This document shows, in pieces, positions 7,343 to 54,602 of a DNA stretch of 64,000 bases (its first letter is position 1; each line of letters begins with the position of its first letter). Position numbers and translations under genes: made by a program. The stretch spans positions 96,061,942 through 96,125,941 of the forward strand of contig NC_090380.1 of assembly GCF_036365525.1 (NCBI RefSeq), read 5' to 3'. A model generated the notes under the pieces. That model saw only the letters and a program-made list of their open reading frames with translations, had not been told where the DNA came from and made no database searches. This stretch comes from Heterodontus francisci. Its lineage: Eukaryota.

Positions 7343-8120
7343 ATGGTTGTGGTTGTTGGAGGTCAATCATCTGAGCTTCAGGATATCACTACAGGAGTTC
7401 CTCAGGGTAGTGTCCTAGGCCCAGCCATCTTCAGCTGCCTCATCAATGACCTTCCTTCAATCATGAGGTCAGAAGTGGGGATGTTCGCTGATGATTACGC
7501 AATGTTCAGCACCATTCGTAAATCTTCAGATAGTGAAGCAGTCCATGTAGAAATGCAGCAAGACCTGGACAATATCCAGGCTTGGGCTGATAAGTGGCAA
7601 ATAACATTCGTGCCACACAAGTGCCAGGCAATGACCATCTCCAACAAGAGAGAATCTAACCATCTCCCCTTGACATTCAATGGCATTACCATCGCTGAAT
7701 CCCCCACTATCAACATCCTACGGGCTACCATTGACCAGAAACTGAACTGGAGTAGCCATATAAATACTGTAGCTACAAGAGCAGGTCAGAGGCTAGGAAT
7801 CCTGCAGCGAGTAACTCACCTCCTGACTCCTCAAAGCCTGTCCACAATCTACAAGGCACAAGTCAGGAGTGTGATGGAATACTCTCCACTTGCCTGGATG
7901 GGTGCAGCTTCAACAACACTCAAGAAGCTCGACACCATCCAGGACAAAGAAGCCGCTTGTTTGGCACCCTTCCTAACAGCACTGTGGGTATACCTACCCC
8001 ACATGGACTGCAGCGGTTCAAGAAGGCAGCTCACCACCATCTTCTCAAGGGCAATTAGGGATGGGCAATAAATGCTGGCCTGGCCAGCGATGCCCACATC
8101 CCGTGAAGGAATAAAAAAAA
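7343..8120 (+). mobile_element. tRNA-headed LINE family, 5'-truncated copy with internal deletion
   Basis: ORF 7343..8071 has GVPQGSVLGP, FADD and YKAQVRSVMEY; the tail gggcaattagggatgggcaataaatgctggcc...cccacatcccgtg ends in poly(A). Confidence 0.92.
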
Positions 8121-8256: not shown

Positions 8257-11200
8257 TTTTTTTAAAATTCATTCATGGGATGTGGGCGTCGCTGGCCAGG
8301 CCAGCATTTATTGCCCATTCCTAATTGCCCTTGAGAAGGTGGTGGTGAGCGTCCTTCTTGAACCGCTGCAGCCCACAGTGCTGTTAGGAAGGGAGTTCCA
8401 GGATTTTGACCCAGCAACAGTGAAGGAACGGTGATACAGTTCAAAGTCAGCATGGTATGTGACTTGGAGGGGAACTTGCAGGTGATGGTGTTCCCATGCA
8501 TTTGCTGCCCTTGTCCTTCTAGTTGGTAGAGGTCGCGGGTTTGGAAGGTGCTGTCTAAGGAGCCTTGGTGCATTGCTGCAGTGTATCTTGTAGATGGTAC
8601 ACACTGCTGCCACTGTGCGTCAGTGGTGGAGCAAGTGAATGTTTGTAGATGGGGTGCCAATCAAGCAGGCTGCTTTGTCCTGGATGGTGTCGAGCTTCTT
8701 GAGTGTTGTTGGAGCTGCACCCATCCAGGCAAGTGGAGAGTATTCCATCACACTCCTGACTTGTGCCTTGTAGATTGTGGACAGGCTTTGGGGAGTCAGG
8801 AGTTGAGTTACTCGCCTCAGGATTCCTAGTCTTTGACCTGCTCTTGTAGCCACGGAATTTATATGGCTACTCCAGTTCAGTTTTCGGTCAATGGTAGCCC
8901 CTAGGATGTTGATAGTGGGGGATTCAGCGATGGTAATGCCGTTGAATGTCAAGGGGAGATGGTTAGATTCTCTCTTGTTGGAGATGGTCATTGCCTGGCA
9001 CTTGTGTGGCGCAAATGTTACTTGCCACTTATCAGCCCAAGCCTGGATATTGTCCAGGTCTTACTGCATTTCTACACAGACTGCTTCAGTATCTGAGGAG
9101 TCATGAATGGTGCTGAACATTGTGCAATCATCAGCGAGCATCCCGACTTCTGACCTTATGATTGAAGGAAGGTCATTGATGAAGCAGCTGAAGATGGTTG
9201 GGCCCAGGACACTACCCTGAGGAACTCCTGCAGCGATGTCCTGGAGCTCAGATGATTGACCTCCAACAACCACAACCATCTTCCTTTGCCCTAGGTATGA
9301 CTCCAGCCTGCGGAGGGTTTTCCCCCTGATTCCCATTGACCTCAGATTTGCTAGGGCTCCTTGATGCCATACTCGGACAAATGCTGCCTTGATGTCAAGG
9401 GTAGTCACTCTCACCTCACCTCTTGAGTTCAGCTCTTTTGTCCATGTTTGAACCAAGGCTGGAATGAGGTCAGGAGCTGAGTGGCCCTGGCGGAACCCAA
9501 ACTGAGTATCACTGAGCAGGTTGTTCCTCAGCAAGTGCCGCTTGATGGCACTGCTGATGACACCTTCCATCACTTTACTGATGATTGAGAGGAGGCTAAT
9601 GGGGCGGTAGTTGGCCGGGTTGGATTTGTCCTGCTTTTTGTGTACAGGACATACCTGGGCAATGTTCCACATTGCAGGGTAGATGCCAGTGTTGTAGCTG
9701 TACTGGAACAGCTTGGCTAGGGGCGCGGCAAGTTCTGGAGCACAGGTCTTCAGTACTATTTTTGTAATATTGTCAGGGCCCATAGCTTTTGCAGTATCCA
9801 GTGCCATCAGTCGTTTCTTGATATCACGTGGAGTGAATCGAATTGGCTGAAGTCTGGCATCTGTGATGTGGCAGGACTGCAGAGCTTAGATCTGATCTGT
9901 TGGTTATGGGATTGCTTAGCTCTTTCTATTGCATGCTGCTTACGCAGTTTGTCATGAAAGTAGTCCTGGGTTGTAGCTTCACCAGGTTGACACCTCATTT
10001 TGAGGTATCCTGGTGCTGCTCCTAGCATGCCCTCCTGCACTCTTCGTTGAACCAGGGCTGGTCTCCTGGCTTGATGGTAATGGTAGAGTGGGGATATGCC
10101 GGGCCATGAGGTTACAGATTGTGGTTGAGTACAATTCTGCTGCTGCTGCTGGCCCACAGCGCCTCGTGGAGGCCCAGTTTTGCATTGCTAGATCCGTTCG
10201 AAATCTATCCCATTCAGCACGGTGATCGTGCCACACAACACGATGGACGGTATCCTCAATGTGAAGGCGGGACTTCGTCTCCACAAAGACTGTGCGGTGG
10301 TCACTCCTACCAATACTGTCATGGACAGATGCATCTGCGGCAGGCAGATTGGTGAGGACGAGGTCGAGTATGTTGTTCCTTCGTGTTGGTTCCCCCACCA
10401 CCTGCCGCAGACCCAGTCTAGCAGCCAAGTCCTTTAGGACTCGGCCAGTAGTGGTGCTACCGAGCCACTCATGGTGATGGACATTGAAGTCCCCCACCCA
10501 GAGTACATTTTGTGCCCTTGCCACCCTCAGTGTTTCCTCCAAGTGCTGTTCAACATGGAGGAGTACTGAGTCATCAGCTGAGGGAGGGCGGTAGGTGGTA
10601 ATCAGTAGGAGGTTACCTTGCCCAGATTTGACCCGATGCCATGAGACTTCATGAGGTCCGGAGTCGATGTTGAGGACTCCCAGGACAACTCCCTCCCTGC
10701 TGTATACCACTGTGCCACCACCTCTGCTGGGTCTGTCCTGCCGGTGGGACAGGACGTACCCGGGGATGGTGATGGCAGTGTCTGGGACATTGTCTGTTAG
10801 GTATGATTCCGTGAGTATGACTATGTCAGGCTGTTGCTTGACTAGTCTGTGGGACAGCTCCCCCAACTTTGGCACAAGCCCCCAGATGTTAGTAAGGAGG
10901 ACTTTTCAGGGTTGACAGGGCTGGGTTTGCCGTTGTCGTTTCCGGTGCCTAGGTCGATGCCGGGTGGTCCGTCCGGTTTCATTCCTTTTTATTGACTTTG
11001 TAGCGGTTAGTTACAACTGAGTGGCTTGCTAGGCCATTTCAGAGGGCATGTAAGAGTTAACCACATTGCTGTGGGTCTGAAGTCACATGTAGGCCAGACC
11101 AGGTCAGGACAGCAGATTTCCTTCCCGAAAGGACATTAGTGAACTAGATGGGTTTTTACAACAATCGACAATGGTTTCATGGCCATCATTCGACCGGTTT

Positions 11201-11330
11201 TAATTCCAGATTTTTATTAAGTTCAAATTCCACCTTCTGCTGTGGTGGGATTCGAACCCATGTCCCCAGAGGAATACCCTGGGTCTCTGGGTTACTAGTC
11301 CAGTGATAATACCACTACACCACCGCCTAC
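8257..11330 (-). mobile_element. Near full-length single-ORF APE-RT LINE (CR1 group, Zenon-like) with tRNA-derived 5' head, copy 1
   Basis: ORFs 9979..10875 (APE: TESYL, YRPP, GDFN, SDH), 9061..9807 (RT: NYRPISLL, QFGFR, GVPQGSVLGP, LADD), 8620..8991 and 8308..8613. Frameshifted, with a ~190 bp deletion near 9866. Zenon-like label is from recalled motif similarity. Confidence 0.92.
11248..11330 (-). promoter_or_regulatory. tRNA-derived Pol III internal promoter (A and B box) at LINE 5' end
   Basis: A box TGGTGTAGTGG (11322-11312) and B box GGTTCGAATCC (11258-11248); anticodon-like loop CTAGTAA as in tRNA-Thr(AGT). Confidence 0.8.
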
Positions 11331-11439
11331 TGATTCAAGTAATTGCAAGTCCATAAAAAGTCAGCGTAAGGAATGGTATTCTGAATTGAAAATCATTCTG
11401 AAGTTGAGAATCATGCTGATTTAATATTAATTTCAAAGT

Positions 11440-13140: not shown

Positions 13141-14735
13141 CAACAACAATTTGCATTTATCTACCATCTTTAATGTAGACAAATATCAGAAAAGGATCAG
13201 CATACAAAATGAATATTAGGCCAAAGAAAGAAATATTAGGTTTGGTGACCAAAAGCTTAGTGAAAAAATGGTTTTTAGGAGGAGAGGGACATGGAGAGGT
13301 GGAGGGGTTTATTGAGGAATTTCCAGAACAACAGGCCTAGACGACTGAAGGCACAGTGTTAGTGGTGGGGTGAAGGGAAGAAGGAAGTAAAAAACAAGGG
13401 TCAGAGGAATAGAAAGCTTTCGGGAGTTGCAAAGCTAGAGGAGGTAACAGGGATACAGCGAGAAAGGTAATGAAGGGATTTAAACACGATGATGACAATT
13501 TAACGTTGGAGGCATTGGTGGACTGGGAGGACATATCGTCAGTGAGCATAGGGTGGCTGATGGGTGAGTGGGAGTCGATGTGGGTTAGATACGGGCAGCA
13601 GAGCTTTGGATGAGCTGAAGCTCATGGAGGGAAAAGGATGGGATGCTGGCCACAAGAACAGTGGACTATTCAACTCTGGAGGTGACAAAAGCATGGATGA
13701 GGCAGATAGGTTGAGTGGCAGGTAGGTTGAGACAGGACGGAGGTGGGGGAGGTTACAGAGGTGGAAGTTGGCGGGCTTTGTGATGGAGAGGGTGGAAAAT
13801 TGAGATTGCAGACTGTTTGGTTCAGCCCTCATACAGTAGATGGGGAGGAAAATGGGAATCAATGACAGGGCACAGAGTTGCTGTGGGGACCCAAGGTGAT
13901 GGTGTTTAAGAGGAAGAAATTGTGGCTCATTCAAGAATGGATACTGGACAAGCAGTCTGACAAAACATAGGCTGCGGGGATGGGGAGGCCAAGAGAGGTG
14001 GTGGAGACATAGATCAGTGTCAGAACATACATGTGGAATCTCACCTCATGTCTGCAGATGCTATCACTACGGGGTATAATGAACCTGATGCTTGGTGGCA
14101 TTTGGAAGTAATGGGGAGATGATGGTGTAGTGGTAATGTCACTGGCCTAGTAATTCACAGGCCCAGGCTAATGTCCTGGGGATGTGGGTTCAAATCCCAC
14201 CGTGGTAGCTGATGGAATTTAAATTCAATTAATTAATTTAAAACATCTGAATTGAAAGCTAGTCTCTATCATTGATTGGTGTAAAAACCCATCTGGTTCA
14301 CCAATCTCCTTTAGAGAAGGAAATCTGCTGTCCTTGCCTGATCTGGCCTACATGTGACTCCAGACCCACAACAATTTGGTTGACTCTTAACTGCCCTCTG
14401 AAATGGCCTAGCAAGCCACTCAGTTGTCAACAAGGGCAATTTGGGTTGGGCACACAAATGCTGGCGATGCCCACATCCCATGAAAGAATGAGGGCAGGAA
14501 GAGAACCCATTCTAGCTATGTTTGGATAAGCATGAGTGAGAGCAAGCAAGAATACTGCCACTGAGCTGGACAACAGATGAAAGGAGGAGGATGGTGTCAT
14601 CGACCATCTCAAAAGCTGCCCAGCGGTTAAGGAGGGATAATGTGTAATGGTCAGCCACAAAAGATGTTATTTACAACTGTTTAGAGCTTTTTCAGTGCTG
14701 AAGCAAGGATCGAAACCTAAGCGGAGAGGTTCAAA
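13141..14735 (-). mobile_element. L2 LINE fragment interrupted by the SINE at 14113-14490
   Basis: The L2 3' end (caacaacaatttgcattta) is at 13141; L2-like sequence resumes after the SINE and is similar to 2040-3235. Confidence 0.7.
14113..14490 (+). mobile_element. tRNA-derived SINE made of the 5' leader plus 3' tail of the tRNA-headed LINE
   Basis: A box tggtgtagtgg and B box ggttcaaatcc; body matches the reverse complement of 43443-43765; tail caagggcaatt...cccacatcccatgaa matches the LINE 3' end. Confidence 0.88.
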
Positions 14736-16215: not shown

Positions 16216-16389
16216 GCAATTTTCATTGCTTGGCATGTTGAGTAATACTGGCCCATTCACTTGGGTTAGAGGCAAATTTAAATGCTAAACCTTCAGTAAT
16301 TGTAAGATCACATAGACCACCATAGCTAAAGTGTTCAGGACCCCAATTCACTGGCTTAAACATCCAATTCAGCCACCCTTGTGGCTGGA

Positions 16390-16720
16390 ATATGCACTAC
16401 CTACAGAATGCACTGCAGCAAGTCGCCAAGGCTTCTCCAGTAGAACCACCCAAACCCATGACGTCCACCACCTTGAGGGACAAGGGCAGCAGGTGCAAGG
16501 GAACAGCATCACCTCTAAGTTCCCATCCAAGGCACATAGCATCCTGGTATGGACATATATCACTGTTCTTTCATTGTTACTAATAGCATTGTGTAAGCAT
16601 CTTCACTACTTGGACTGCAGCAGCTTAAGAAGAAGGCACACCACAACCTTCTCAAGGCAACTAGGGATGGGATATAAATGCCAGCCTTGCCAATGGCACC
16701 CACATCCTGAGAAGAAATAA
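16390..16720 (+). mobile_element. Older 3' fragment of the tRNA-headed LINE family
   Basis: Degenerate SKFPSKAHSILVWTYI and the tail ctcaaggcaactagggatgggatataaatgccagcc...cccacatcc. Confidence 0.75.
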
Positions 16721-16924
16721 AACTATCTCGAGGATTCAAGTAGGTTCTGCTTCACTTTAATTGACAGAAGTTTTCCTGCTTGTAATAAACAAATAAATTC
16801 TAATTAAGATTTGGCAGATAAAATTACATGTTCTAATTATTCAGTTTGTTCCTTAATTACTTTGACCCATTTGGTTATTCAGATCTAAAAAAAAACCTAA
16901 TCAAATACCACGAAGGGAGAAAAC

Positions 16925-28435: not shown

Positions 28436-30526
28436 TGCCACGTACTTACCCTGCTGTGTCCCAGTGTCCTGTGAAGTTGTGATCCTCTTCTTCCATTCAA
28501 GTGTAACATTCCTTCTTGTAGGCATGCTGCACCTGGGTGAATAATCTTAATTTTGCACATTCCAGGACGTGAGACTTAAATAGACCATAAAAGGTATTAC
28601 AGAGGTTTATAGAGAACACACTGACACAAATGGGAATACATGGGTGTTACAGCAATGTAACTACATCTTTCACTAAATGTTCCTCATCAACATGTGTGTC
28701 CTTTTCTCTGTGTGAATGATGTGTGCCAGCATGTAGCGCCAATGTCACATCCCTTTGCACCGTTGGCCCTTCAGGAGAGCCAACATATGCAATAACATCA
28801 TTGCCATGCCACCATTACTCATGAGCGTCTCCACGGACTCTGTGACATGGACGTTGGCTCAGTCAGCTGCTGCCTCTAATGGTTTACACAGGGATGCTGC
28901 AGTTGTGGACTGGTGCACAGCAGGTGAGCGAGGGTGATGTATAACTTGCAGAGATCATGTCGGTTCCTATGGAGCAGACAGCCTTTGTCTGTTAAGCCAC
29001 TTCCGTACATCCCTAGCTCACTGCTTGCCCTGCGTGCAGAGCCTGGGTGTCATCTGCCCTCCCATGAGTCTTTCATGTTGTAGGTCTTCAGCATCCTCAT
29101 AGTCCGAGGAGGAATCCTGTTGGTGTCTCTCCTCATCATTCCAGGCCTGGCCCCTATTGGGTGCGTAGTTGTGCAGAGCAGCAAAGAAAGGAGTAGGCAT
29201 TTTCGGCCCATAGTACAGGGCATCACCCTATCCATCCAGACATTGGAGGCACTCTTTCAGCATGCTGATCTCCTGCTCAATGGTGGCTGATGTAGTTCAG
29301 TGGCTGGTGTTGTATCTCTCCTCTGCAGCAGTGGTGGGGTCTCTCACTGGTGTTGGGAGCCATGCCTGCAAAGGATATCCCTTATCTCCAAGAGTCCACC
29401 CCTCCATCTGAGACAGTTCAGTGAACAGCGGTGGCAGTTGGGACTGGCGCAAGACCCAGGTGTCATGGCAGCTGCCTGAGAAGCGGTCACACCTTCGCTG
29501 CAAGCAGCCGCGGTGTTCACATACCAGCTTCACTTAGGTTGAGAGGGCTCCTTTAATGGTGACGTCTGCAGGTAGTAGCCTGGCAGTAGGCCTCATGGCC
29601 ACATGAGTCCAGTCTATGAACATTACAACCTATGGTTCTCCGGCAACGGTGCCAAAACCAATGGCCCTTTGACCTGGCTGTGAGAGTCTGCCCTGAAGCG
29701 GACATCCTTACTGGCCCTCAGGTGACCTCCCTGATGCAGTGGTGTACAGCTGACACGACAAAGGTCTCTGGTGGACCCCTAAAAGGCTGCAGAGGCCTCA
29801 GACTTGAGAACCGCTGCCACTATGAGGAAAAAAGGCATGGGATGTCCACCAGAGCACATGGGCTGAAGGTCATGCTTGAGCAGGGCACAGAGACGTGTCA
29901 CCACCCTCTCTTTATGCACAGTCTCCTTTGACACTGGTGCTCTGACATCCGATGGCATGTCATGTGTGGCCTGCAGATGCATGGCAACCGTAATGGTGGG
30001 CTCCCCTTGAGGGCTGCTGGTCACGACCGGGGTCCTCTACGTGGATCGCACCTGCCTGTTGGTATTGCCCCTGTGCATACGGATCCTCATGTGCAGAGGA
30101 TCACACAGTGTAGGATGAGCCGTACCTATTTCCATGTCATAAATAAATTTGAACCCTGCATGTATTTGAAGGTTCCTAACAGGGCATGGATTGGTGTTGA
30201 CTGGGTACGTCAGCTGCTTTCCTGGATCAACTATGTGGCGTGCCATGGCATTTCCCATCTTGGCCAACACTCAGAGTGGCACAGCATGACCACATCAAGA
30301 TTCTATCAGCTGAATCGATTGCCCCCACCATCCATATAACCTAATGCTCCTGCCCTTTCTAGCACCCTCCCCACGTACAGGGTGCCTGGTGTGCCAATGT
30401 CCCCTCACAGACACAGAGCGTACATTGTTAACGGAGGGATAGCAGATGGTACCCTCCCTTCATGCCAGCACAGTTTTCCCTCCAGTAATACCAGACCCCC
30501 TTCCTTTCACAATGCATATCCCCCTG

Positions 30527-30995
30527 CATATCCCCCCTCCTCCCTTTAAGAATGCAGAGTTAGACCCCTGCATATTCCCCCTCCTCCCTTTAAGAATGCC
30601 GAGTTAGACCCCTGCATATCCCTCCTCCCTCCTCCCTTAAGAATGCAGAGTTAGACCCCTGCATATTCCTCCTCCTCCCTTTAAGAATGCAGAGTTAGAC
30701 CCCTGCATATCCCCCCTGCCTCCTCCCTTTAAGAATGCAGAGTTAGACCCCTGTGAATCCCCCCTCCCTCCTCCCTTTAAGAATGCAGAGTTAGACCCCT
30801 GTGAATCCCCCATCCCTCCTCCCTTTAAGAATGCAGAGTTAGACCCCTGCATATCCCCCCTGGCTCCTCCCTTTAAGAATGCAGAGTTAGACCCCTGTGA
30901 ATCCTCCCTCCCTCCCTCCTCCCTTTAAGAATGCAGAGTTAGACCCCTGTGAATCCCCCCTCCCTCCTCCCTTTAAGAATGCAGAGTGAGGACCC
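30527..30995. repeat. Minisatellite, 10 units of about 44-52 bp
   Basis: Unit cctcctccctttaagaatgcagagttagacccctg followed by catat/tgaat and a variable C-tract, counted 10 times. Confidence 0.95.
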
Positions 30996-31249
30996 ACCTG
31001 CTTTTCAGATCGTGAACGGGACGGCACGTGACGGCTGCCCGTTCAACGAAACATCCGGCATTGTCGGTGGAGAGGTGGCAGGCTGCATAATCAGCATAGG
31101 TAAGTAAGCATTACCATATGCTAATTGTGGTGCTGCCGCCGTATGGCGGGGCGACCGCACCGAGGTCACACTTCCGCCGGTAAAAAGTCCAGACTTTTCT
31201 GGCCCCTCATCTGTCTCACTCATCTCAACTCAACAAGCCATAAATGCAA

Positions 31250-32435
31250 GCATTTCCTCAACCGAGGATTCCCCCACACTGTGGTTGACAGGGCCCTCAA
31301 CCATGTCCGGCCCATTTCCCGCACCTCTACCCTCACCCCTTCCCCTCCCTCCCAGAACGTGACAGGGTTCCCCTTGTCCTCACTTTCCACCCCATCAGCC
31401 TCCATATCCAAAGGATCATCCTCCGCCATTTCCGTCAACTCCAGCATGATGCCACTACCAAACACATCTTCCCCTCCTTTCCCCTGTCAGCATTCCGAAG
31501 GGATCGTTCCCTCCGCGACACCCTGGTCCACTCCTCCATTACCCCCACCACCTCGTCCCCGTCCCATGGCACCTTCCCCTGCAATCGCAGGAGGTGTAAT
31601 ACCTGCCCATTTAGCTCCTCTCTCCTCACTATCCCAGGCCCCAAACACTCCTTTCAGGTGAAGCAGTGATTTACTTGTACTTCGTTCAATGTAGTGTACT
31701 GTATTCACTGCTCACAATGTGGTTTCCTCTATATTGGGGAGACCAAACGCAGACTGAGTGACCGCTTTGCGGAACACTTCCGCTCAGTCCGCAAGCAGGA
31801 CCCTGAGCTTCCGGTTTCTTGCCATTTCAACACTCCCCCCTGCTCTCATGCTCACATCTCTGTCCTGGAATTGCTGCAGTGTTCCAGTGAACATCAACGC
31901 AAGCTCGAGGAACAGCATCTCATCTACCAATTAGGCACACTACAGCCTGCTGGACTGAACATTGAGTTCAATAATGTCAGAGCAAGACAGCCCCCCATTT
32001 TACTTTCATTTTTAGTTATTTTTTCTTTTTCTCTTTTTTACATTTTTACAATCTTTTTTTTTGCATTTATTTCATTTCATCTTAGTTTGTTCAGTTTGCT
32101 TACCCACTGTTTTGTTTTCATGTTTGCACTTGCTGTTGTTCAATAGTCAGTCCGTTAACACCTTATCTGTACTAATGCTTTGTCTTTCAACACACCATTA
32201 ACATATTGTTTGCCTTTGCTCCATGACCTCTTGGTCAGCTATGTGGCCTTGTCCAATCTACACCTTCTCCTTTGTTGTCTCTTGCCCCACCCCCGCCTCA
32301 CTTGCTTATAACCTGTGACATTTCTAATATTTGTCAGTTGCGAAGAAGGGTCACTGACCCGAAACGTTAACTCTGCTTCTCTTTCCACAGATGCTGCCGG
32401 ACCTGCTGAGTGGTTCCAGCATTTCTTGTTTCTAT
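31250..32435 (+). mobile_element. Penelope-like retroelement 3' part: GIY-YIG endonuclease and terminal repeat
   Basis: FLNRGFP, CNRRRCNTC and VYCIHCSQCGFLYIGETKRRLSDRFAEH...HFN...GLNIEF (ORF 31694..32146). Confidence 0.92.
32335..32375 (+). ncRNA. Minimal hammerhead ribozyme-like motif (degenerate core)
   Basis: cagtt-gcgaaga-agggtc act gaccc-GAAA-cg-tta-act; the CUGANGA core is mutated here but reads CTGATGA in the copy at 6540-6557. Confidence 0.5.
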
Positions 32436-34010: not shown

Positions 34011-34380
34011 ACCTTTCATGGATGCTGGTGAAATCCCCAATACATACAGGCAACATGTAAAGTTATAAAAAAATGATTTTCTTCTGAGATGTTTATTATT
34101 TTTGGACGTGATTACGCACTTTGAGGAGATGCTCAAAGACTGAAAGCATTCCCTAATGTGAGTGCTTTGAGCTGTGCTTTAAGTGGTGGCCGTTGAAATA
34201 ATGAGCTATTAACTGGTGCACAGTGATGCTCAGTGACAAATGAATGATGGGAAGTTAATATGCGTTGTCCCACTGATTTATATGTTATTGACTCATAGTT
34301 AATTAAAACTAAAAGTTTTTGTATTGTATACAGTTTTAGTTGTGTGTTTGCCTGAAACATTAAAAGATTCTAGTATTTAC

Positions 34381-35368
34381 TGTTATGACCAGGTGAGAAA
34401 GGGGCTAGGGGGTCCCTCTCAGCCTTTTCCTGCTTTGGTTGTAACAAAGTTTAATTTTTAAAACACCATGTTTTTAGCTTCCCCTCAGTGAATCTTGTTC
34501 ACTGCTCTCCAATTGTAATGGCAAAGAAATCAACCAGACAGGTTTTCTTAGATTTAAACAAGAAAGGTGTAAGTTTATTAACTTTAAAACTCTAATTCAG
34601 TTAAAACTACGAAAATACGTGACGCGATCACGCTATCATGCATATGCGATAAACACACACGCAGATTGAGACAGAAAAGGAGAAAAAATCAAGGGAAAAG
34701 GTTTGAAGCAATAGCTGAAGTTCAGTTACCGTCTTTTGAGTTCGATGTAAATTCTTTGATTGCAGTAAAATTTTGCCGTCTTGTTGGGGCCCAGTGCAGA
34801 CTTTCAAACTTGTTTTGATGGTTTTCTGTCTTAAGGCTTGGCTTCTTCCGTGGGTCCCTGTCTTTGTGTGAGAGGGAGAGAAAGAGACTGGGATGCTGTC
34901 TTCTTAAAATCCAGTTGCAGTCTCTGCTTTTCGTGAGAGAGAGAGAGAGAGACAGGGAGAGATGCTCTTTCTTTCAGTCCAGTTGCAGTCTGATTTTTTC
35001 CTGTGTCACAATTCAAACCAAACCGGGGCCAGCAGGCTAGTCATCTGATTAGCTCCTTTTTTGGAACAACCTGCCGGGTGAGGTTTTGTGGATTCTTTTA
35101 ATCTTAGTAGACAGCCTCAGTAGGGGGCTGGAACACTGACTTTCATATCTTCGATGTCTTTTGATCAAAATTTATTTGGTTAATTGAATCAGGGAGCAGT
35201 TCCATTGTCTTCTCCAGGCAACTGTCTTTTGGAATGCAAGTCTTTCCAGCCACTGTCCTTTTATAATGCAGGTGGAGCCATGTTTTCAGTTCAGTAAGAG
35301 TTTAAAATTAATGTTCCATATGACAAAATTAATATGTATCATTCTTGGCAGGTGTGGTTTTCCTCACA
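34381..35368 (-). mobile_element. Solo LTR of the Gypsy family (longer variant)
   Basis: TGTTATGACCAGGTGAG...TCACA termini with 4-bp TSD TTAC. Confidence 0.88.
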
Positions 35369-40478: not shown

Positions 40479-43400
40479 TTTTTTTTTTATTCATTCATGG
40501 GATGTGGGCGACGCTGGCTAAGCCAGCTTTTATTGCCCATCACTAATTTCCCTTGAGAAGGTGGTGGTGAGCTGCCTTCTTGAACCGCTGCAGTCCATTT
40601 GGGGTAGGTATACCCACAGTGCTGTTAGGAAGGGAGTTCCAGGATTTTGACCCAGCGACAGTGAAGGAACGGCGATATAGTTCCAAGTCAGGATGGTGTG
40701 TGACTTGGAGGGGAACTTGCCATGCATTTTCTGCCCTTGTCCTTCTAGTTGGTAGAGGTCGCGGGTTTGGAAGGTGCTGTCTAAGGAGGCTTAGTGCATT
40801 GCTGCAGTGCATCTTGCAGATGGTACACACTGCTGCCACTGTGCGTCGGTGGTGGAGAGAGTGAATGTTTGTAGATGGGGTGCCAATCAAGTGGGCTGCT
40901 TTGTCCTGGATGGTGTCGAGCTTCTTGAGTGTTGTTGGAGCTGCACCCATCCAGGCAAGTAAAGAGTATTCCATCACACTCCTAACTTGTGCCTTGTAGA
41001 TGGTGGACAGACTTTGGGGAGACAGGAGGTGAGTTACTCGCCTCAGGATTCCTAGCCTCTGATCTGCTCTTGTAGCCAAGGTATTTATGTGGCTATTCCA
41101 GTTCAGTTTCTGGTCAATGGTAGGCCCTAGGATGTTGATAGTGAGGGATTCAGCGATGGTAATGCCATTGAATGTCAAGGGGAGATGGTTAGAGTCTCTC
41201 TTGTTGGAGATGGTCATTGCCTGGCACTTTGTGTGGTGCGAATGTTACTTACTACTTATCAGCCCAAGCCTGGATATTGTCCAGGTCTTGCTGCATTTCT
41301 ACACGGACTGCTTCAGTATCTGAGGAGTCACGAATGGTGCTGAACATTGTGAAATCATCCGCGAACATCCCCATTTCTGACCTTATGATTGAAGGAAGGT
41401 CATTGATGAAGCAGCTGAAGATGGTTGGGCCTAGGACACTACCCTGAGGAACTCCTGCAGTGATGTCCTGGAGCTCAGATGATTGACCACCAACAACCAC
41501 AACCATCTTCCTTTGCGCTAGGTATGACTCCAGCCAGCGGAGGGTTTTCCCCCTGATTCCCATTGACCTCAGTTTTGCTAGGGCTCCTTGATGCCATACT
41601 TGGTCAAATGCTGCCTTGATGTCAAGTGCAGTCACTCTCACCTCACCTCTTGAGTTCAGCCCTTTTGTCCATGTTTGAACCAAGGCTGTAATGAGGTCTG
41701 GAGCTGAGTGGCCCTGGTGGAACCCAAACTGAGCGTCACTGAGCAGGTTATTGCTAAGCAAGTGCTGCTTGATGGCACTGTTGAAGACACCTTCCATCAC
41801 TTTACTGATGATCGAGAGGAGGCTGATGCGGGGGGGTAATTGGCCGGGTTGGACTTGTCCTGCTTTTTGTGTACAGGACATACCTGGGCAATTTCCCACA
41901 TTGCAGGGTAGATGCCAGTGTTGTTGCTGTACTGGAACAGCTTGGCTAGGGACGCGGCAAGTTCTGGAGCACAGGTCTTCAGTACTATTTTTGGAATATT
42001 GTCAGGGCCCATAGCTTTTGCAGTATCCAGTGCCTTCAGTTGTTTCTTGATATCACGTGGAGTGAATCGAATTGGCTGAAGTCTGGCATCTGTGATGCTG
42101 GGGACTTCAGGAGGAGGCCGAGATGGATCATCAACTCGGCACTTCTGGCTGAAGATTGTTGCAAATGCTTCAGCCTTATCTTTCTCACTGATGTGCTGGG
42201 CTCCCCCATCATTGAGGATGGGGATATATGTGGAGCCACCTCCTCCAGTTAGTTGTTTAATTGTCCACCACCATTCATGGCTGGATGTGGCAGGACTGCA
42301 GAGCTTAGATCTGATCTGTTGGTTATGGGATTGCTTAGCTCTGTCTATCGCATGCTGCTTATGCAGTTTGGCATGCAGATAGTCCTGTGTTGTAGCTTCA
42401 CCAGGTTGACACCTCATTTTGAGGTATGCCTGGTGCTGCTCCTGGCATGCCCTCCTGCACTCTTCATTGAACCAGGGTTGGTCTCCTGGCTTGATGGTAA
42501 TGGTGGAGTGGGGAATATGCCAGGCCATGAGGTTACTGATTGTGGTTGAGTACAATTCTGTTGCTGCTAATGGCCCACAGCGCCTCATGGATGCCCAGTT
42601 TTGCATTGCTAGATCTGTTCGAAATCTATCCCATTTAGCACGGTGATAGTGCCACACAACACGACGGACGGTATCCTCAATGTGAAGGCGGGACTTCGTC
42701 TCCACAAGGACTGTGCGGTGGTCACTCCTACCAATGCACTCATGGACAGAAGCATCTGCAGCAGGCAGATTGGTGAGGACGAGGTAGAGTATGTTTTTCC
42801 CTCGTGTTGGTTCCCCCACCACCTGCCGCAGACCCAGTCTAGCAGCTATGTCCTTTAGGACTTGGCCAGTTCGGTCAGTAATGGTGCTACCAAGCCACTC
42901 TTGGTGATGGACATTGAAGTCCCCCACCCAGAGTACCCAGATTACATTTTGTGCCCTTGCCACTCTCAGTGCTTCCTCCAAGTGGTGTTCAACTTGGTGG
43001 AGTACTGAGTCATCAGCTGAGGGAGGGCGGTAGGTGGTAATCAGTAGGAGGTTACCTTGCCCAGATTTGACCTGATGCCATGAGACTTCATGGGGTCCGG
43101 AGTCGATGTTGAGGACTCCCAGGGCAACTCCCTCCCTACTGTATACCACTGTGCAACCACCTCTGCTGGGTCTGTCCTGCTGGCGGGACAGGACATACCC
43201 AGGGATAGTGATTGGGACATTGTCTGTCAGGTATGATTCCGTGAATATGAATATGTCAGGCTGTTGCTTGACAAGTCTGTGGGACAGCTCTCCCAACTTT
43301 GGCACAAGCCCCCAGATGTTAGTAAGGAGGACCTTGCAGGGTCGACAGGGCTGGATTTGCCGTTGTCGTTTCCGGTGCCTAGGTCGATGCCAGGTGGTCC

Positions 43401-43765
43401 GTCCGGTTTCATTCCTTTTTATTCACTTCGTAGCGGTTAGGTACAACTGAGTGGCTTGCTAGGCCATTTCAGAGAGCATGTAAGAGTTAACCACATTTCT
43501 GTGGGTCTGGAGTCACATGTCGACCAGACCAGGTAAGGACAGCACATTTCCTTCCCTAAAGGACATTAGTGAACCAGACGGGCTTTTACAACAATCGACA
43601 ATGGTTTCAGGGCCATCATTAGACTAGCTTTTAATTCCAGATTTATTAATTAAATTCAAATTCCACCTTCTGCTGTGGTGGGATTCGAACCCATGTCCCC
43701 AGAGAAATACCCTGGGTCTCTGGGTTACTAGTCCAGTGATAATACCACTACGCCACCGCCTACCC
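40479..43765 (-). mobile_element. Full-length single-ORF APE-RT LINE (CR1 group, Zenon-like) with tRNA-derived 5' head, copy 2
   Basis: ORFs 41797..43305 (APE to RT start, 502 aa), 41252..41899 (RT, FADD) and 40543..41217 (C-terminus) are joined by two frameshifts. Poly(A) at 40479-40488; no room for an ORF1. Confidence 0.95.
43681..43765 (-). promoter_or_regulatory. tRNA-derived Pol III internal promoter (A and B box) at LINE 5' end
   Basis: A box TGGCGTAGTGG (43755-43745) and B box GGTTCGAATCC (43691-43681), with a 53-nt spacer containing a cccagag/ctctggg hairpin. Confidence 0.85.
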
Positions 43766-46656: not shown

Positions 46657-48435
46657 TGCAATGGGGGAGCCCAACACATCAGTGCAAAAGACAAGGCTGA
46701 AGCATTTGCAACCATCTTCAGCCAGAAGTGCCGAGTGAATGATCCATCACGACCTCTACCTGAGACCCCCAGAATCACAGATGCCAGTCTTCAGCCAATT
46801 CGATTCACTCCACATGATATCAACATACAGCTGAAGGCACTGGATACTGCAAAGGCTATGGGCCCTGACAACATTCCTGCAATAGTACTGAAGACTTGTT
46901 CTCCAGAACTAGCTGTGCCCTTAGCCAAGCAGTTCCAGTACAGCTACAACCTGACAATGTGGAAAATTGCCCAGGTATGTCCTGTACACAAAAAGCAGGA
47001 CAAGTCCAACCCAGCCAATTACCGCTCTATCAGTCTACTCTCGATCATCAGCAAAGTGATGGAAGGGGTCATCAACAGTGCTATAAAGCGGCACTTGCTC
47101 AGAGATAACTTGCTCAGTGACGCTCATTTTGGGTTCCGCCAGGGCCACTCAGCTCCTGACCTCATTACAGCCTTGGTCCAAACATGGACTAACAAGCTGA
47201 ACTCCAGAGGCGAGGTGAGAGTGACTGCCCTTGATATTAAGGCAGCATTTGACCGAGTATGGCATCAAGGAGCCCTAGCAAAAATGGAACCAGGGGGAAA
47301 ACTCTCTGCCGGTTGAGGTTATACCTAGCGCAAAGGAAGATAGTTGTGGTGGTTGGAGCTCAATCAACTCATTCCCAGGACATCACTGCAGGAGTTCCTC
47401 AGGATAGTGTCCTAGGCCCAACCATCTTTAGCTGCTTCATCAATGACTTTCCCTCCATTATAAGGTCAGAATTGGGGATGTTCTTTGCGACAGGTTTAGA
47501 TAGAGGATCTGGATCGGCGCAGGCTTGGAGGGCCGATGGGCCTGTTCCTGTGCTGTAATTTTCTTTGTTCTTTGTTCTTTGTATGATTGCACAATGTTCA
47601 GCACCATTCACAACTCCATGTTCAGATGTAGTAAGACCTGGTAAACATCCAGGCTTGGGCTGATAAGTGACCAGTAACATTCGTGCCACACAAGTGCCAG
47701 ACAATGAACATCTCAAACAAGAGAGAATCTAACCATCTCCCTTTTATATTCAATGGCATTACCATTGCTCAATCCCCCATTATTAACATCCTGGGGGTTA
47801 CCATTGACCAGAAACTGAACTGGACCAGCCACATAAATACTGTGGCTACAAGAGCAGGTCAGAGGCTGGGAATTCTGTGGCAAGTAACTCACCTTCTGCC
47901 TCCCCAATGCCTGTCCATCACCTGCAAGGCACAAGTCAGGAGTATGATGGAATACTCTCCACTTGCCTGGGTGGGTGCAGCTCCAACAATACTCAAGAAG
48001 CTCGACACCAGAACAAAGCAGCCTGTTTGATTGGCACCCCATCCACCACCTTCACCATTCACTCCCTTCACCACAGATGCACAGTGTTAGCAGTGTGTAC
48101 CATCTACAAGATGCACTGCAGCACCTCACCAAGGCTCCTTCGACGGGATCTTCCAAACCCTAGAAGGACAAGGGGAGCAGATGCATGGGAACATCACCAC
48201 CTGCAAGTTCCCCTCCAAGCCACACACCATCCTACTTGGAACTATATTGCTATTCCTTCACTGTCACTGGGTCAAAAACCTGGAACACCCTTCAGAGCAG
48301 CATTGTTGGTGTACCTACACCCCAAGGACTGCAGTGGTTCAAGAAGGCAGCTCACCATCACCTTCTCAAGGGTAATTAGGAATGGGGAATAAATGCTGGC
48401 CTAGCCAGCATCGCCAACATCCCATGAAAAAAAAG
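46657..48435 (+). mobile_element. tRNA-headed LINE family, 5'-truncated and more diverged copy
   Basis: ORFs 46735..47316, 47259..47558, 47683..48030 and 48185..48379 are homologous to copy 2; poly(A) end. Confidence 0.92.
47486..47582 (+). mobile_element. ~95 bp CR1 3' tail inserted in the LINE RT motif
   Basis: gcgacaggtttagatagaggat...cctgttcctgtgctgtaattttctttgttctttg matches the reverse complement of 61445-61545. Confidence 0.88.
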
Positions 48436-49685: not shown

Positions 49686-50506
49686 TGTTATGACCAGGTG
49701 AGAAAGGTGTCTCGGGGTCTTTTACTGTCTTCACTGGTCTTATTGTAACAGGGTTTAATATTTAATCACACTGTGTTTTGAGCTCCCCCTTGGTGAATCC
49801 TTATTCACCGCTTTCCAATTATAAGGCAAAGAAATGAGCACAACCAGGTTTTCTTAGGTCTTAAGAAGAAAAGTGAAATTTATTGAAACTTAAACTTAAA
49901 CTCTAATTCGGTTAACGCCCACTGATATATGACGCACCCATGCTAGCCTGCACACGCGATCCACACATGCAAATAGGGACAGAAGAGAGCAGAAGAAAAA
50001 TAAAGTGGAGAGGCTTGAGGAAATATCAGAAGAGTTTCTTGTTTACTGTGCTTCAAGCTCACATTAGTCCTTTTGTAAGGAGTCTTGCTTTTTGTTGGTG
50101 CCCAGTATTCCTCTTCAGCCTTGTTCACTGTCAAAGACTTTTCACTCTTGGGGTTCACATGTCTCCAATGCGTCTTCAGTTCTGTAAGAAAGAGATGGGA
50201 GCATACAGGAGAGAGGACTTTTCCATTCCAGGAGCAAACAGCTTTCTGACTTTCCAATACTCTGTGGCAAGTTCATATTCAAACAGCCAGTCAGTCATGT
50301 GAGTAAACTGGTCTGACCAGGTCTTCTGTGTATTGGAGAATCAGGGACTGGGTCCTTTGTTCCAACACTGTCTGCTAGTATGCAAGGGGCCTGGCAATTC
50401 CTTGTGATAGTCCCTCTTTTCTTCCTAGCAACATTTTAAAGTTTTTAATGTTCATATGGCAAAATAATGTGTGCCTCATTCTTGGTAAGTGGGGGCCTAC
50501 ATGACA
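49686..50506 (-). repeat. 3' LTR
   Basis: TGTTA...TGACA; purine-rich gggtgtggagg lies immediately upstream on the minus strand. Confidence 0.9.
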
Positions 50507-53500
50507 CCTCCACACCCAGGGGAATGAAATGCGATTTGATTTAAAAAAAAGCGCATTTCATTACAAGGTTTGAGAGAAATATAAGTTACGGAAAGAAAAA
50601 ACATGTATTTCTCGCATTCATTTCCATTCATTCATCAATCTTAAAGCCTATTAAAATGATCTTTTTTGGGTGCCAGTGCTGCTTTAATTTCCCTTTTTTT
50701 ACCAGGAGAGTTAGTAGCGGGCGGGTCTATCCTGAACTCTCTGAGTCATGCAAAGACCTTTGTCTTCAGGGGATGGGTGGTTCCCTTTTCCTCTGACTGT
50801 GGGGAAGGATTCTTTGATAATCTCCCCTTTGTTCTCTGGGACACTCCTACCTGCAGGTATTTGTGCAGACTTGACTGCACTCTCCTCTGCCACTTCGACT
50901 AGGTGAGACATCACTCTCACGGTTTATGTGCACCCTAAAGGTCTCTCTTTGTCTCTGCAGGTTCCTGTAAATTATGCTAGCCACTCTGGTGGGCTGCTTC
51001 TAGAGTCTGCATTTACACAGGAGGATTTGGGGTCTGACTGTTCACATTTTTCGGGTTTGGTTGACCAGACAGTAGGGGTTTTCATCTGGGATTCCTCCTG
51101 GACTTCCTTTAACCTGCCTTCTTGGTCAACTTTTTCCCTTCTCTTTCTAAACTTTTGCCAGCCGTGTGCCTGCCTGTCCCCTTTTGTTCTCGGCAGGGGT
51201 CCCTTACAGTTCACCAGACCTCTGCTGGAGGATCCTCCTAACACTTAGGACTTACGGGTGTAGGTTTCCCTGCAGGTTGGGGTTTCCCCTCAACCTGGCA
51301 CATGTGGCAACTCCTGCAGTACTCCACCACGTCTTTGTGGAGCTTTGGCCAGTCAAATTGCTCTCTTATGTGGGCTTTGGTCTTTCATATATCGGCATGT
51401 ACAGCCACTGTAGTCTCGTGGGCCCTTCTTAATAATTCTCCCCGGTACCTCTGCGGCACCACTAACTGGTGAGCTACTGTCCACTCCTTACTCTCCGGTC
51501 TGTGAGGAGAACTCCATTTCCTCATCAGTACCTCATTCTTTAAATAATAGCAATCAGGGACTCCCTCTGCTTCACTTTCAGACTGGGCAGCCTGTGCTAA
51601 CTCTCGCAATACTGGGTCAGCTTGCTGAGCCTCAGCTAGGGAAAATCCATTTAATTCATTCCCTAGGTCTCCTAACTTTCCAAAGAAAGTCTTGGACAGG
51701 CAGACCTCATGGTACTCTGCCTGCAGTGCCAATGCAGTCTCCTCTGGGGGAGCTAGTTTGATCATGGCCTGACCGACTACACATTCAGGGACACTGCAGG
51801 GGACCGTCTCCTGCCGCTGCCCTGTCTCTCTGACCTCCTGTAGTCTTTCACTACTGGGGAGGCTACCACCTTCACCCCTGCCAGATCATTACCTCGGAGC
51901 AGGTCAACCCGGTCCACAGGCAAACTAGGGACAATCCCAATGGTCACCGGTCCCGAAACTAGGTCACACTCCAGGTGCACCTGGTGTACAGGTACAGGCA
52001 TACACTGCCCTCCAATACCATTCACCACCATTTTGGTGTTCACTGCACTCTCCGGGGGAAATGTCAGGTCTTTTCCCAGTAAAAGGTCCCTGAGAATCAC
52101 TATGGGCTTGCTTGCCCCACTCGAGGGGTATTGGGTTACTTTCCCTTCAGACACAAAACCCTGATAACCTTCAAGAATCCTATTAACATTTCCTGCACTG
52201 GATGTAGTAAGCTTCCTGGTTGCACTCTTACTGCAGTTAAAGCCACAACTTGTTCTGTGCTTTCCATCAGGGTCCTGTCTGCACTGAGTGGGTGTGCCCT
52301 GATTAACTCTACCGGTTTCCCCCTTAGTTTCCAGCAGTCAGCTTTTAAATGCCCTGCCTTATTACAATGGAAGCACACAGGTCTCCGGGTCTCACTGTCG
52401 CTCATAGCACCTTCCTTTTTGGCTGGAGGAGGGCCCCCTTTGTCTCCTGCTTTCCTTTCTCTCCCAGGATTTTCTGGGCTCCTATCACCTTCCCACCCTT
52501 TGTCCTTTTCAGATTTGTGGGGGTGACTAGGAAAGCTTCTCCCATGGGAAACTGACTTATAATTTAAAGCAAACTCATTGGCCAGAACGGCTGCTTGTCA
52601 GGCTCCCTGAACCTGCTGCTCCTCCACTTGGGTCTTTATGGAGAGTGGGAGAGAGTTTTTAAATTCCTCTAACAGAATTGCTTCTCTGAGATTCTCATAG
52701 CTGAGATGTATTTTAAGAGCCCTCAGCCACTGGTCAAAAGCCAGCTGCTTACTTCTTTCAAACTCCAGATAAGTTTGATTAGCTTGCTTCTTGAGGATTC
52801 TAAACTTTTTGCGTTAGGCTTTGGGTACTAATTCATATGCCACGAGGATAGCATTTTTGGTCAATTCATAATTTGATGAACTCTCGTCTGGCAACAAGGA
52901 ATAAACCTCATGGGCTTTTCCGGTTAGTTTGCTTTGCAATAAAAGAGACCAGGTCTCAGCTGGCCATTTTAGCTGCCTTGCCAGTTTCTCAAAAGACACA
53001 AAAATGCTTCCACATCTTCCTCATTGAATTTTGGAATTAGTTGAGTGAGATTTAGCAAATTTGTACCCAGTTCTGAATTCTGCTCCTCCATATTGGCCAT
53101 GCTTTCACTGGGGTTACTCTGTTGTCCCCTAGTTAACTCAAGCCGCCTCCACTCTGTTTCTTCGCATTCTTTCTGAAATATTTTTTCTCTCTCTCTCTCC
53201 TCTCTCTCTCCTCCCTTCTCCTGTCTTTCTCTCTCTGTCTCCTGCCTTTCATTTTCTTCACGTTCCTTTTTGAAGGCTCTCTCTTTCTCTCTCTCTTCTA
53301 GTTCAAGTTTCTTTTGTTCCAATTGTATCTTTGCCAGCAGTACCCTGTCTGGGTCTGCTTCTAACACTGCCTCTGCTTCTTCAAATTCAAGGGAAAAAAT
53401 GGTTGGCCACTGGCCTTCGGAGTTCAGACTTCCTAGCCTTACCATGTACAGTGTTCCCACACTGTTCAGCCATTTTTCTCACCTCTTCCATTGACAGTGC

Positions 53501-53553
53501 TTTTTAGCTTATCCCAAGTTACTTTACCCTGGCTTGGAGAACTACTAACTTCA

Positions 53554-54470
53554 ATGAATTTGGCCTAACCATCAGCCTCAAGAAAACGAACATCATGGGG
53601 CAGGATGTCAGAAATGCTCCATCCATCAATATTGGCGACCACGCTCTGGAAGTGGTTCAAGAGTTCACCTACCTAGGCTCAACTATCACCAGTAACCTGT
53701 CTCTAGATGCAGAAATCAACAAGCGCATGGGTAAGGCTTCCACTGCTATGTCCAGACTGGCCAAGAGAGTGTGGGAAAATGGCGCACTGACACGGAACAC
53801 AAAAGTCCGAGTGTATCAGGCCTGTGTCCTCAGTACCTTGCTCTACGGCAGCGAGGCCTGGACAACGTATGCCAGCCAAGAGCGAGGTCTCAATTCATTC
53901 CATCTTCGCTGCCTTCGGAGAATACTTGGCATCAGGTGGCAGGACTATATCTCCAACACAGAAGTCCTTGAAGCGGCCAACACCCCCAGCTTATACACAC
54001 TACTGAGTCAGCGGCGCTTGAGATGGCTTGGCCATGTGAGCCGCATGGAAGATGGCAGGATCCCCAAAGACACATTGTACAGCGAGCTCACCACTGGTAT
54101 CAGACCCACCGGCCGTCCATGTCTCCGTTATAAAGACGTCTGCAAACGTGACATGAAATCGTGTGACATTGATCACAAGTCGTGGGAGTCAGTTGCCAGC
54201 ATTCGCCAGAGCTGGCGGGCAGCCATAAAGACAGGGCTAAATTGTGGCGAGTCGAAGAGACTTAGTAGTTGGCAGGAAAAAAGACAGAGGCGCAAGGGGA
54301 GAGCCAACTGTGCAACAGCCCCAACAAACAAATTTCTCTGCAGCACCTGTGGAAGAGCCTGTCACTCCAGAATTGGCCTTTATAGCCACTCCAGGCGCTG
54401 CTTCACAAACCACTGACCACCTCCAGGCGCGTATCCATTGTCTCTCGAGATAAGGAGGCCCAAAAGAAGA
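53554..54470 (+). mobile_element. RTE-clade LINE, 5'-truncated, with an intact 3' ORF segment
   Basis: ORF 53595..54416 FTYLGS, LLYGSEAWT, RLRWLGHVSRM, CSTCGRACHSRIGLYSH; (AAG) tail; TSD AACTTCA at 53547-53553 and 54471-54477. Confidence 0.93.
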
Positions 54471-54602
54471 AACTTCAGTTGCAGACATGTTAGTATTCAA
54501 TTACACACAACCACAAGAAAACCTGTATTGAAAACTTGCTCTTTTTTTGATTGGGAACAATTTGGCTTCCCACTTCCAGTGTCTCTCGCTAGCACAAATT
54601 TC

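Follow-up and report, generated by a model that had tools for sequence, protein, structure and literature searches.

A Zenon-type LINE of Heterodontus francisci with a tRNA-like head and a T-poor coding strand: a candidate for transcription by RNA polymerase III

The window, a 64,000-nt stretch of Heterodontus francisci DNA, contains an autonomous Zenon-type LINE with an A/B-box head and a T-poor coding strand, which is probably transcribed end to end by Pol III. On the sequence evidence, a probability of about two in three is given to this reading. The RNA is likely to be made by Pol III because the element combines a tRNA-type promoter, avoidance of T-runs, and a reading frame with no in-frame start codon. 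LINEs are Pol II messages, and SINEs are short non-coding Pol III RNAs; if the proposed reading is true, a coding family behind a tRNA promoter breaks this divide. A vertebrate Pol III would then be able to produce a working mRNA of 3.3 kb, translation of an uncapped RNA would become testable, and one deletion in a Pol III LINE would be a direct path to the birth of a SINE. The family, with thousands of candidate copies, is common to sharks and rays. It is already catalogued; the mechanism would be the new part.

Copies, tRNA-like head, and family identity

The features of the element and its copies in the window are collected in Table 1. The initial annotation placed the element at 40479-43765, and both coordinates and strand proved correct, copy A being read from 43765 to 40479 on the minus strand. 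Family members are 3.3-kb LINEs with a tRNA-like head, a leader of ~300 nt, one APE-RT frame, and poly(A). The single frame claimed earlier exists as 975 codons in the majority sequence of 23 copies, but in copy A itself it is broken by frameshifting insertions near 41830 and 41230.

Table 1. Positions of the element, its parts, and related copies in the window.
Feature	Positions	Strand	Remarks
Copy A, full-length decayed Zenon-type LINE	40479..43765	-	Sense strand free of T4; 95.8% identity to the majority of 23 copies
tRNA-derived head of copy A	43670..43765	-	Long variable arm; A box from nt 11 of the element
A box TGGCGTAGTGG	43745..43755	-	
B box GGTTCGAATCC	43681..43691	-	
Leader block	43443..43590	-	LINE and SINE majorities almost the same; by eye, published shark/ray Zenon consensuses too
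Predicted hairpin with 7-nt anticodon-like loop CTAGCAA	43447..43472	-	Candidate tRNA-mimic start signal
In-frame GCT, complementary to loop AGC	43432..43434	-	Candidate frame-setting codon
Out-of-frame AUG and short overlapping uORF	43272..43412	-	
APE-RT reading frame	40543..43458	-	975 codons in majority; disrupted in copy A
3' tail common to LINE and SINE	40479..40559	-	Stem-loop (predicted), poly(A), and an AATAAA (40534-40529)
Copy B, a separate full-length insertion	8257..11332	-	~170-nt internal deletion; a single TTTT where poly(A) begins
5'-truncated, internally deleted copy	7343..8120	+	
More decayed 5'-truncated copy, same family	46661..48428	+	84-88%; 2 sense T4
Old 3' fragment of the Zenon-type family	16381..16722	+	69%
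Partner SINE	14113..14490	+	LINE nt 1-323 fused to LINE nt ~3219-end

The copy at 46.6 kb is split by 96 nt (47487-47582) with a match to the CR1 end at 61450-61545. This copy was considered as a member of an older subfamily and rejected as such, and it is no independent test, because the majority of its 29 best relatives is 99.9% identical to the main majority; the 16.4-kb fragment gave the same outcome. Target-site duplications of 6-8 bp were found in about 4 of 22 copies, with the remainder at chance level. All 22 full-length copies have one common tail end followed by an A-rich tract, which is decayed in a few. The SINE probably arose from the LINE by an internal deletion, kept the promoter and the tail, and depends on the LINE enzyme. 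Contigs from four runs, for which the RNA label is a guess, span the whole element as well as the head-to-tail joint of the SINE.

The tRNA-like head with its A and B boxes is part of the LINE. Its claimed presence on two independent insertions was confirmed: the boxes and the loop were located (in copy A the CTAGTAA loop lies at 43731-43725, between the A and B boxes), and in copies A and B, as well as in the SINE, ARAGORN reports the head as a tRNA. The Rfam tRNA-clan similarity of the head is weak (19.7 bits, under the cut-off). A genome search for the parent tRNA gave only Thr(TGT) and Lys(TTT) loci, neither of them convincing, and a search with the head by itself, in which common words are skipped, gave no match. 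The commonest A-box form was found in 35 copies and the commonest B-box form in 48; among the top 8 forms listed, the next by frequency are CpG-type changes. The view that the head is part of the element and not a chance neighbour was likewise upheld. With an ORF-only query, 29 loci were found, of which 20 start at nt 1-10 and 2 at nt 22-45, the other 7 being 5'-truncated. Among the best 39 other matches to head plus ORF, 22 are contiguous, 3.2-3.3 kb long, and identical in their start. The upstream flanks of 60 head-bearing loci have nothing in common, except for one locus fetched twice, and no upstream ORF1 was found there.

Judged from sequence similarity, copy A is a Zenon (CR1 group) LINE of sharks and rays. 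The assignment is based on a match, made by eye over the first 400 nt and by length, to the published elasmobranch consensuses from CarCar, RhiTyp, ScyCan, HypSab, and SquAca (Stuart et al., 2026; PMC13343379). In the same comparison by eye of the first 400 nt, the head opens all 7 elasmobranch Zenon consensuses, with degenerate boxes in some, and is missing from 2 hagfish and 1 coelacanth consensuses. The elasmobranch elements share with the one analyzed here the head and leader (by eye), a single APE-RT ORF, the lack of ORF1, and poly(A), and are of similar length (2886-3314 nt, five of them 3244-3314 nt). The suggestion that the family might be undescribed therefore had to be dropped, since the published consensuses match it, head included. 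The main text of Stuart et al. (2026) contains 0 mentions of tRNA or Pol III, and the accessible part of that paper does not remark on the head, the T-tract avoidance, the missing AUG, or the partner SINE. No published remark on the Zenon head was found in the literature, and no proposal of a Pol III-transcribed autonomous LINE was found in the open full-text literature searched. In an RT tree, which included no named Zenon, the family groups with unnamed relatives (88/96 support) and not with the CR1 or RTE of the host.

Reading frame and leader

The 975-codon frame carries the Pfam domains PF03372/PF14529 and PF00078. Its first in-frame Met in the 23-copy majority is codon 285, with none ahead of the endonuclease domain, a feature that the initial annotation had overlooked. 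Shared non-CpG variants comprise 39 synonymous and 26 non-synonymous changes, as compared to 521 and 1779 among singletons; purifying selection acts on the frame in lineages that spread. At nt 325-433, the four commonest shared variants other than reference-CpG decay are all synonymous in the main frame. In 48 of 53 copies, 77 nt separate the AUG of the uORF from the APE start downstream. In the uORF frame, the most frequent shared variants change the amino acid, and some of the common ones remove the uORF stop. Initiation at this AUG followed by a -1 frameshift was considered and disfavoured, as no canonical slippery heptamer was seen by eye and variants hit the uORF codons or stop.

The GCT after the predicted hairpin is in frame in the best consensus of four of the five species and off by one in SquAca-1. 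The loop and the GCT show no covariation, and the loop U is replaced by G or C in some copies. The hairpin preceding an in-frame GCT hints weakly at initiation of the IRES type. A comparable arrangement, a non-AUG frame after a possible anticodon-stem-loop mimic, is described for the type 6 IGR IRES of dicistroviruses (PMC10275262; bioRxiv 10.1101/2024.04.17.590008), to which the leader block is similar in size (about 160 nt). In contrast to that IRES, the leader offers 3-4 possible loop-codon pairs, has no established PKII/PKIII, and has no Rfam match; the L1.1a and L1.1b motifs of the IRES were not seen in position by eye. A search of the leader against Rfam for a ribozyme or IRES gave no match at gathering or useful E-value. 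In one copy, folding of the 5' 502 nt is only slightly stronger than that of shuffled sequences (z -2.1).

Scarcity of T-tracts on the sense strand

Runs of four Ts (T4) are absent from the sense strand of 40490-43765, 8268-11330, 7343-8120, and the SINE. The initial annotation was right within these four intervals, but in copy B the poly(A) tail opens with a TTTT, just beyond 8268. Its estimate of about 16 sense A4+ runs agrees with the 16 and 15 found in the two long copies. Of its other counts, the 3 sense T4+ runs assigned to the CR1 at 61445-62660 became 5, and the two T4 runs reported at 46657-48430 are correct for the LINE part but not for the whole interval, which holds 3, the third one (47559) being located between LINE pieces.

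In the ORF of the 23-copy majority, codon-usage-preserving shuffles gave 2.1 expected T4 vs 0 observed (P=0.085-0.096). In the same shuffles, much larger deficits were found for T3+ (4 vs 12.7 expected, P≤0.0005), windows with four Ts in 5 nt (1 vs 10.8, P=0.0015), and windows with four Ts in 6 nt (10 vs 32.6, P≤0.0005), and A, C, and G show no comparable deficit. Relative to composition-weighted synonymous draws, the absence of T4 has P=0.006-0.007, and T3+ and T-rich windows are far under expectation in both nulls. In the comparison with codon shuffles that the initial annotation proposed, the depletion is thus significant for the wider set of T-tracts but not for the T4 count alone (P≈0.09 with codon usage kept), and a lack of significance here had been named there as a ground for refutation. 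The T4 count is by itself weak evidence.

T-ending codons are found ahead of TT-starting codons in 0 of 20 cases and elsewhere in 206 of 781 (P=0.0024). When the shuffles keep the number of TT as well, T3+ remains under expectation (4 vs 6.5, P=0.027), and the absence of T4 has P=0.50. The ORF is depleted in TT (o/e 0.68) and TA (P=0.0045); part of the T signal may be a general dinucleotide bias, because host RTE is depleted in both as well. Only 40 sites are a single change away from T4, vs 116-144 for the other bases, and none of the 164 shared variants creates a T4. With copy decay, T4 climbs from 0.10 to 0.76 per kb. The oligo-T avoidance is confined to the sense strand.

The comparison with co-resident CR1 and RTE, suggested in the initial annotation, yielded two negative controls, both near expectation: CR1 has 7 T4 (8.1 expected) and 29 T3+ (29.3 expected), and RTE has 3 T4 (3.6 expected) and 15 T3+ (16.4 expected). 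Among 80 metagenomic relatives, the 76 with an ORF of ≥350 aa have at least 3 T4 each and no upstream B box; these controls come from unknown hosts, are 26-40% identical to the family and richer in T, and in many cases lack a complete 5' end. A relaxed ARAGORN run over the metagenomic loci produced calls at all positions, that is, noise. In H. francisci itself, T4 is no absolute rule, since tRNA-Lys(TTT) genes hold an internal TTTT and tRNA-Thr(TGT) loci have no T4 within 45 nt downstream.

Proposed mechanism, alternatives, and related systems

In the proposed mechanism, TFIIIC would bind the internal A and B boxes, and Pol III would initiate some 10 nt before the A box. Selection against terminators would let it read through 3.3 kb, up to the T-run that comes first in the flank, where it would halt, as Pol III does on Alu. 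Translation of the uncapped RNA may then begin at a non-AUG codon around nt 330; pairing of the hairpin loop with the in-frame GCT possibly sets the frame and is the weakest step. The encoded protein would attach to the stem-loop and poly(A) at the 3' end and insert a copy by target-primed reverse transcription, which is established for LINEs. The loss of interrupted T-tracts fits the termination of human Pol III by degenerate T-rich elements (PMC3141230). Several points count against Pol III: the AATAAA near the 3' end, the 3 T3 runs within the head, and statements in reviews that Pol II transcribes non-LTR retrotransposons and that length is restricted by the processivity of Pol III (PMC10886601). 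A bolder and rather doubtful version is a retrotransposon free of Pol II, cap, and start codon, in which a tRNA-mimicking pseudoknot would load ribosomes at a non-AUG codon in the manner of dicistrovirus IRESs and the SINE would keep the ribosome-binding part to hijack the enzyme.

It is unlikely that the element is an ordinary Pol II-transcribed Zenon LINE that captured a SINE head by template switching, with the leader as Pol II promoter and the boxes as passengers or chromatin openers. T scarcity would then have another cause, such as avoidance of U-rich sequences or UU/UA through RNA decay or innate sensing. This would agree with the non-significant T4 count under the strict null, the joint depletion of TT and TA, in host RTE too, and the position of AATAAA. 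RNase L prefers UU/UA. RNase L/OAS orthologs are reported from the elephant shark (PMC1845163), and lepidopteran Zenon and its deletion derivative are described without a Pol III promoter (PMC6740152). However, the boxes are intact by eye at the extreme 5' end in five shark and ray species (some consensuses being degenerate), the depletion of T3 and interrupted T-tracts exceeds the TT bias in the Zenon-type family only, and ribosomes scanning a capped RNA would pass many upstream AUGs with no in-frame one until codon 285.

Much less probable is a dual or processing mode, in which the element RNA is cut out of longer host transcripts at the head by an RNase P-type activity, or Pol III and Pol II make template and mRNA separately. 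The ARAGORN calls, despite the loose tRNA fold, and the easier translation of a Pol II mRNA would suit it, but the element starts 10 nt before the A box, which is about 3 nt upstream of a mature tRNA 5' end. Cleavage defines the 5' end in several LINE clades (PMC5786205); here, no ribozyme family in Rfam was matched, and processing alone does not explain terminator avoidance. As for the head-ORF junction, an artefact or repeated chance chimeras of a SINE with truncated LINEs would draw on the great abundance of SINEs bearing the same head. Such an origin is effectively refuted: the head-to-ORF spacing is constant (in 67 of 76 scored copies, the motif after the GCT lies 21 nt away), the head is present on copies anchored by the ORF, and the same junction is found in the published consensuses of five species.

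The Pol III reading has partial precedents. The element is not the first LINE with a tRNA-like part, because RTE-1_DAn and elements related to it, autonomous LINEs, are said to contain a tRNA-like sequence (Kojima, 2018; PMC5786205). Unlike Zenon, they belong to the RTE clade, and the accessible part of that paper does not discuss the position of this sequence, a promoter role, or terminators. SINE2 elements, including bipartite LINE-derived ones, also have an A/B-box head and a LINE tail (PMC5786205), but are short and non-coding, whereas the element here is 3.3 kb long with an ORF under purifying selection. In the Kojima model the head joins an already deleted LINE (PMC5786205); here the coding parent itself has the head. 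Internal deletions also arise from Zenon elements, such as Persaeus, which is non-coding and described without a Pol III promoter (PMC6740152). Cassandra, Helenus, and Ajax (TRIMp3) are retroelements with the Pol III promoter of a small-RNA gene, but are non-autonomous LTR elements of 0.3-1.3 kb, and their autonomous partners are argued to need Pol II (PMC10886601). Motif look-ups for shark SINEs in two supplements gave no matching element. The shark SINEs HE1, SacSINE1, and CmiSINE are defined by a V, Deu, or CORE body with an HER1 or L2 tail, and they are listed with other LINE partners.

Structure and family of the element

The element studied here is a Zenon-type LINE of the CR1 group, represented in the window by two full-length copies, A and B. 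Their tRNA-derived 5' end, herein referred to as the head, was called as a tRNA by ARAGORN in both copies, and its Rfam similarity is under the cut-off. In this 6.0-Gb genome, the number of first-look candidates varied with the query between 3,690 and 15,823; these are not copy numbers. Among the 39 other loci that best match the head plus ORF start, 22 are contiguous elements of 3.2-3.3 kb, and most of the rest are copies of the element that have suffered deletions or gained insertions. To escape the selection built into that query, the ORF alone was also searched. Of the 29 other loci found, 20 begin within nt 1-10 of the element and 2 within nt 22-45; the remaining 7 are 5'-truncated, starting at nt 122-381. 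The head is part of the element, and its linkage to the ORF, posited in the initial annotation, holds in these loci. Directly upstream of the head, no common sequence was found among 60 head-bearing loci, except for one place fetched twice. Therefore, the upstream ORF1 or promoter that had been named as contrary evidence is absent.

The majority sequence of 23 copies (identity of copies to it, 96-98%) has 3,298 nt and a single 975-codon APE-RT frame at nt 308-3235. Non-CpG variants shared between copies are synonymous in 39 cases and non-synonymous in 26, against 521 and 1779 for singletons; this synonymous excess shows selection on the enzyme in the lineages that spread. The main frame before the endonuclease (window 43432-43335, minus strand) encodes an Arg/Lys-rich peptide, which could be a nuclear-localisation or RNA-binding segment replacing ORF1. 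High-identity protein matches are only element fragments within Heterodontus and Heptranchias gene models. Public shark gene models (P0009, P0011, P0014, and P0102) contain parts of the LINE frame at no more than 87% identity, probably through annotation read-through into repeats.

The suggestion that the element is undescribed did not survive comparison with published consensuses. In their first 400 nt, compared by eye, head and leader start all seven elasmobranch Zenon consensuses, from five species including one ray, and are absent from those of hagfish (two) and coelacanth (one) (Stuart et al., 2026; PMC13343379). The main text of that paper mentions neither tRNA nor Pol III. The RT tree includes no named Zenon reference and is weakly supported at its deep nodes; in it, the element stands apart from host CR1 and RTE. 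Full-text literature searches listed no paper that puts forward an autonomous LINE transcribed by Pol III. The family is known and its architecture apparently unremarked.

Partner SINE and translation start

In 29 of 30 loci of the partner SINE, LINE nt 1-323 are fused to nt ~3219-end, with the breakpoint immediately before the in-frame GCT described below; the joint is also present in contigs from four runs. The SINE head is an older variant, by eye nearer the dogfish consensus. Lepidopteran Zenon likewise spawns a deletion element, described as lacking a Pol III promoter (PMC6740152). We infer that the shark SINE arose by deletion from the LINE, although the LINE may instead have captured the head of a pre-existing SINE.

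The first Met of the main frame is codon 285, beyond the endonuclease domain. At nt 354 stands a conserved AUG, which 48 of 53 copies carry out of frame, as does the ray consensus when compared by eye. With reference-CpG decay set aside, the four shared variants found most often in nt 325-433 (9-20 copies each) are silent in the main frame but change the amino acid in the frame of the nt-354 AUG, which favours a non-AUG start near nt 330; rarer variants are mixed (3/9 synonymous). A predicted hairpin at nt 294-319 has AGC in its 7-nt loop; together with a GCT that lies in the main frame at nt 332, it resembles PKI of dicistrovirus IRESs, and tRNA-mimic initiation is hypothesized. GCT is in frame in the best consensus of four of five species; only two length changes are informative (whale shark in frame, dogfish not). 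The loop's U varies among copies, and no covariation was found. By eye, dicistrovirus L1.1 motifs are missing from the expected positions, and the leader has no Rfam IRES match. A review raises IRESs of this kind in non-LTR elements as a mere possibility (PMC3894237).

T-tract avoidance and the transcribing polymerase

As initially annotated, no sense T4 run occurs in 40490-43765 or 8268-11330. These stretches contain 16 and 15 A4+ runs, respectively, and a single TTTT lies in copy B where the poly(A) tail joins. Counts were corrected elsewhere: the CR1 control (61445-62660) has five sense T4 runs rather than three, and the more decayed copy (46657-48430) has three rather than two.

The majority sequence contains no T4 and 8 T3, whereas runs of at least three number 44 for A, 49 for C, and 41 for G. 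Taken alone, the absence of T4 from the ORF is weak evidence, since P = 0.085-0.096 with codon usage kept (0.006-0.007 under a composition null), and the codon-shuffling test set out in the initial annotation gives no significant T4 depletion under the stricter null. The wider T-tract depletion is strong: T3+ runs number 4 where 12.7 are expected, 4-T-in-5 windows 1 (10.8 expected), and 4-T-in-6 windows 10 (32.6 expected), and a TT-starting codon never follows a T-ending one (0/20, against 206/781). Equivalent windows of A, C, or G are not depleted. When the shuffles hold the TT count constant as well, T3+ (P = 0.027) and 4-in-5 windows (P = 0.029) remain low, but T4 does not (P = 0.50). Host CR1 and RTE show no run deficit (T4, 7 vs. 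8.1 and 3 vs. 3.6 expected), although RTE is also low in TT and TA. Among 80 metagenomic relatives, which are distant, T-richer, and often 5'-incomplete controls, all 76 whose ORF reaches 350 aa or more have at least three T4 and lack an upstream B box; their T3 z-scores lie between -2.7 and +3.1. No shared variant creates T4 (0/164), and T4 density climbs with copy decay from 0.10 to 0.76 per kb.

Pol III transcription would be the simplest single cause of the intact terminal A/B promoter, the family-specific T-tract avoidance, and the missing AUG start, and is favoured on this ground with a probability of roughly 0.68. A Pol II LINE carrying the head as a passenger is unlikely beside this one cause, and processing or dual modes of RNA production are considerably more doubtful still. 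Under Pol III transcription, a strict T4 rule is disfavoured because host tRNA-Lys(TTT) genes hold internal TTTT; degenerate T-tracts are reported also to terminate human Pol III (PMC3141230). Many near-identical tRNA-Thr(TGT) gene copies (L330-L346, L357-L359; e.g., C35, C1806, and C1960 of G000) have similar 3' flanks with only interrupted T-tracts and no T4 within 45 nt.

Other repeats in the window

Between its direct repeats, the LTR element, presumably of Gypsy type, has ORF pieces on the minus strand that include a zinc knuckle. The RTE fragment is very young (99-100% identity to its best genomic copies). A 96-nt piece of the CR1 end interrupts the decayed Zenon copy at 47487-47582.

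Repeats located in the window
Feature	Position	Strand	Description
LINE copy A	43765→40479	minus	A box at nt 11, CTAGTAA loop, perfect B box
LINE copy B	11332→8257	minus	92% identical to copy A; full-length; A box at nt 11, CTAGTAA loop, perfect B box
Decayed LTR retrotransposon	49686-55433		Direct repeats of ~830 nt (49686-50506, 54603-55433), 88% identical
Solo repeats related to the LTR element	15060-15499 and 34377-34720		
RTE LINE 3' fragment	53549-54416	plus	Lodged inside the LTR element; RTE control
Young CR1 family	61445-62696	minus	Copies 98% identical; CR1 control
Penelope-like fragment	31125-32146	plus	Weak GIY-YIG match under the Pfam cut-off
Tandem repeat	30496-30995		Period ~85-100 nt
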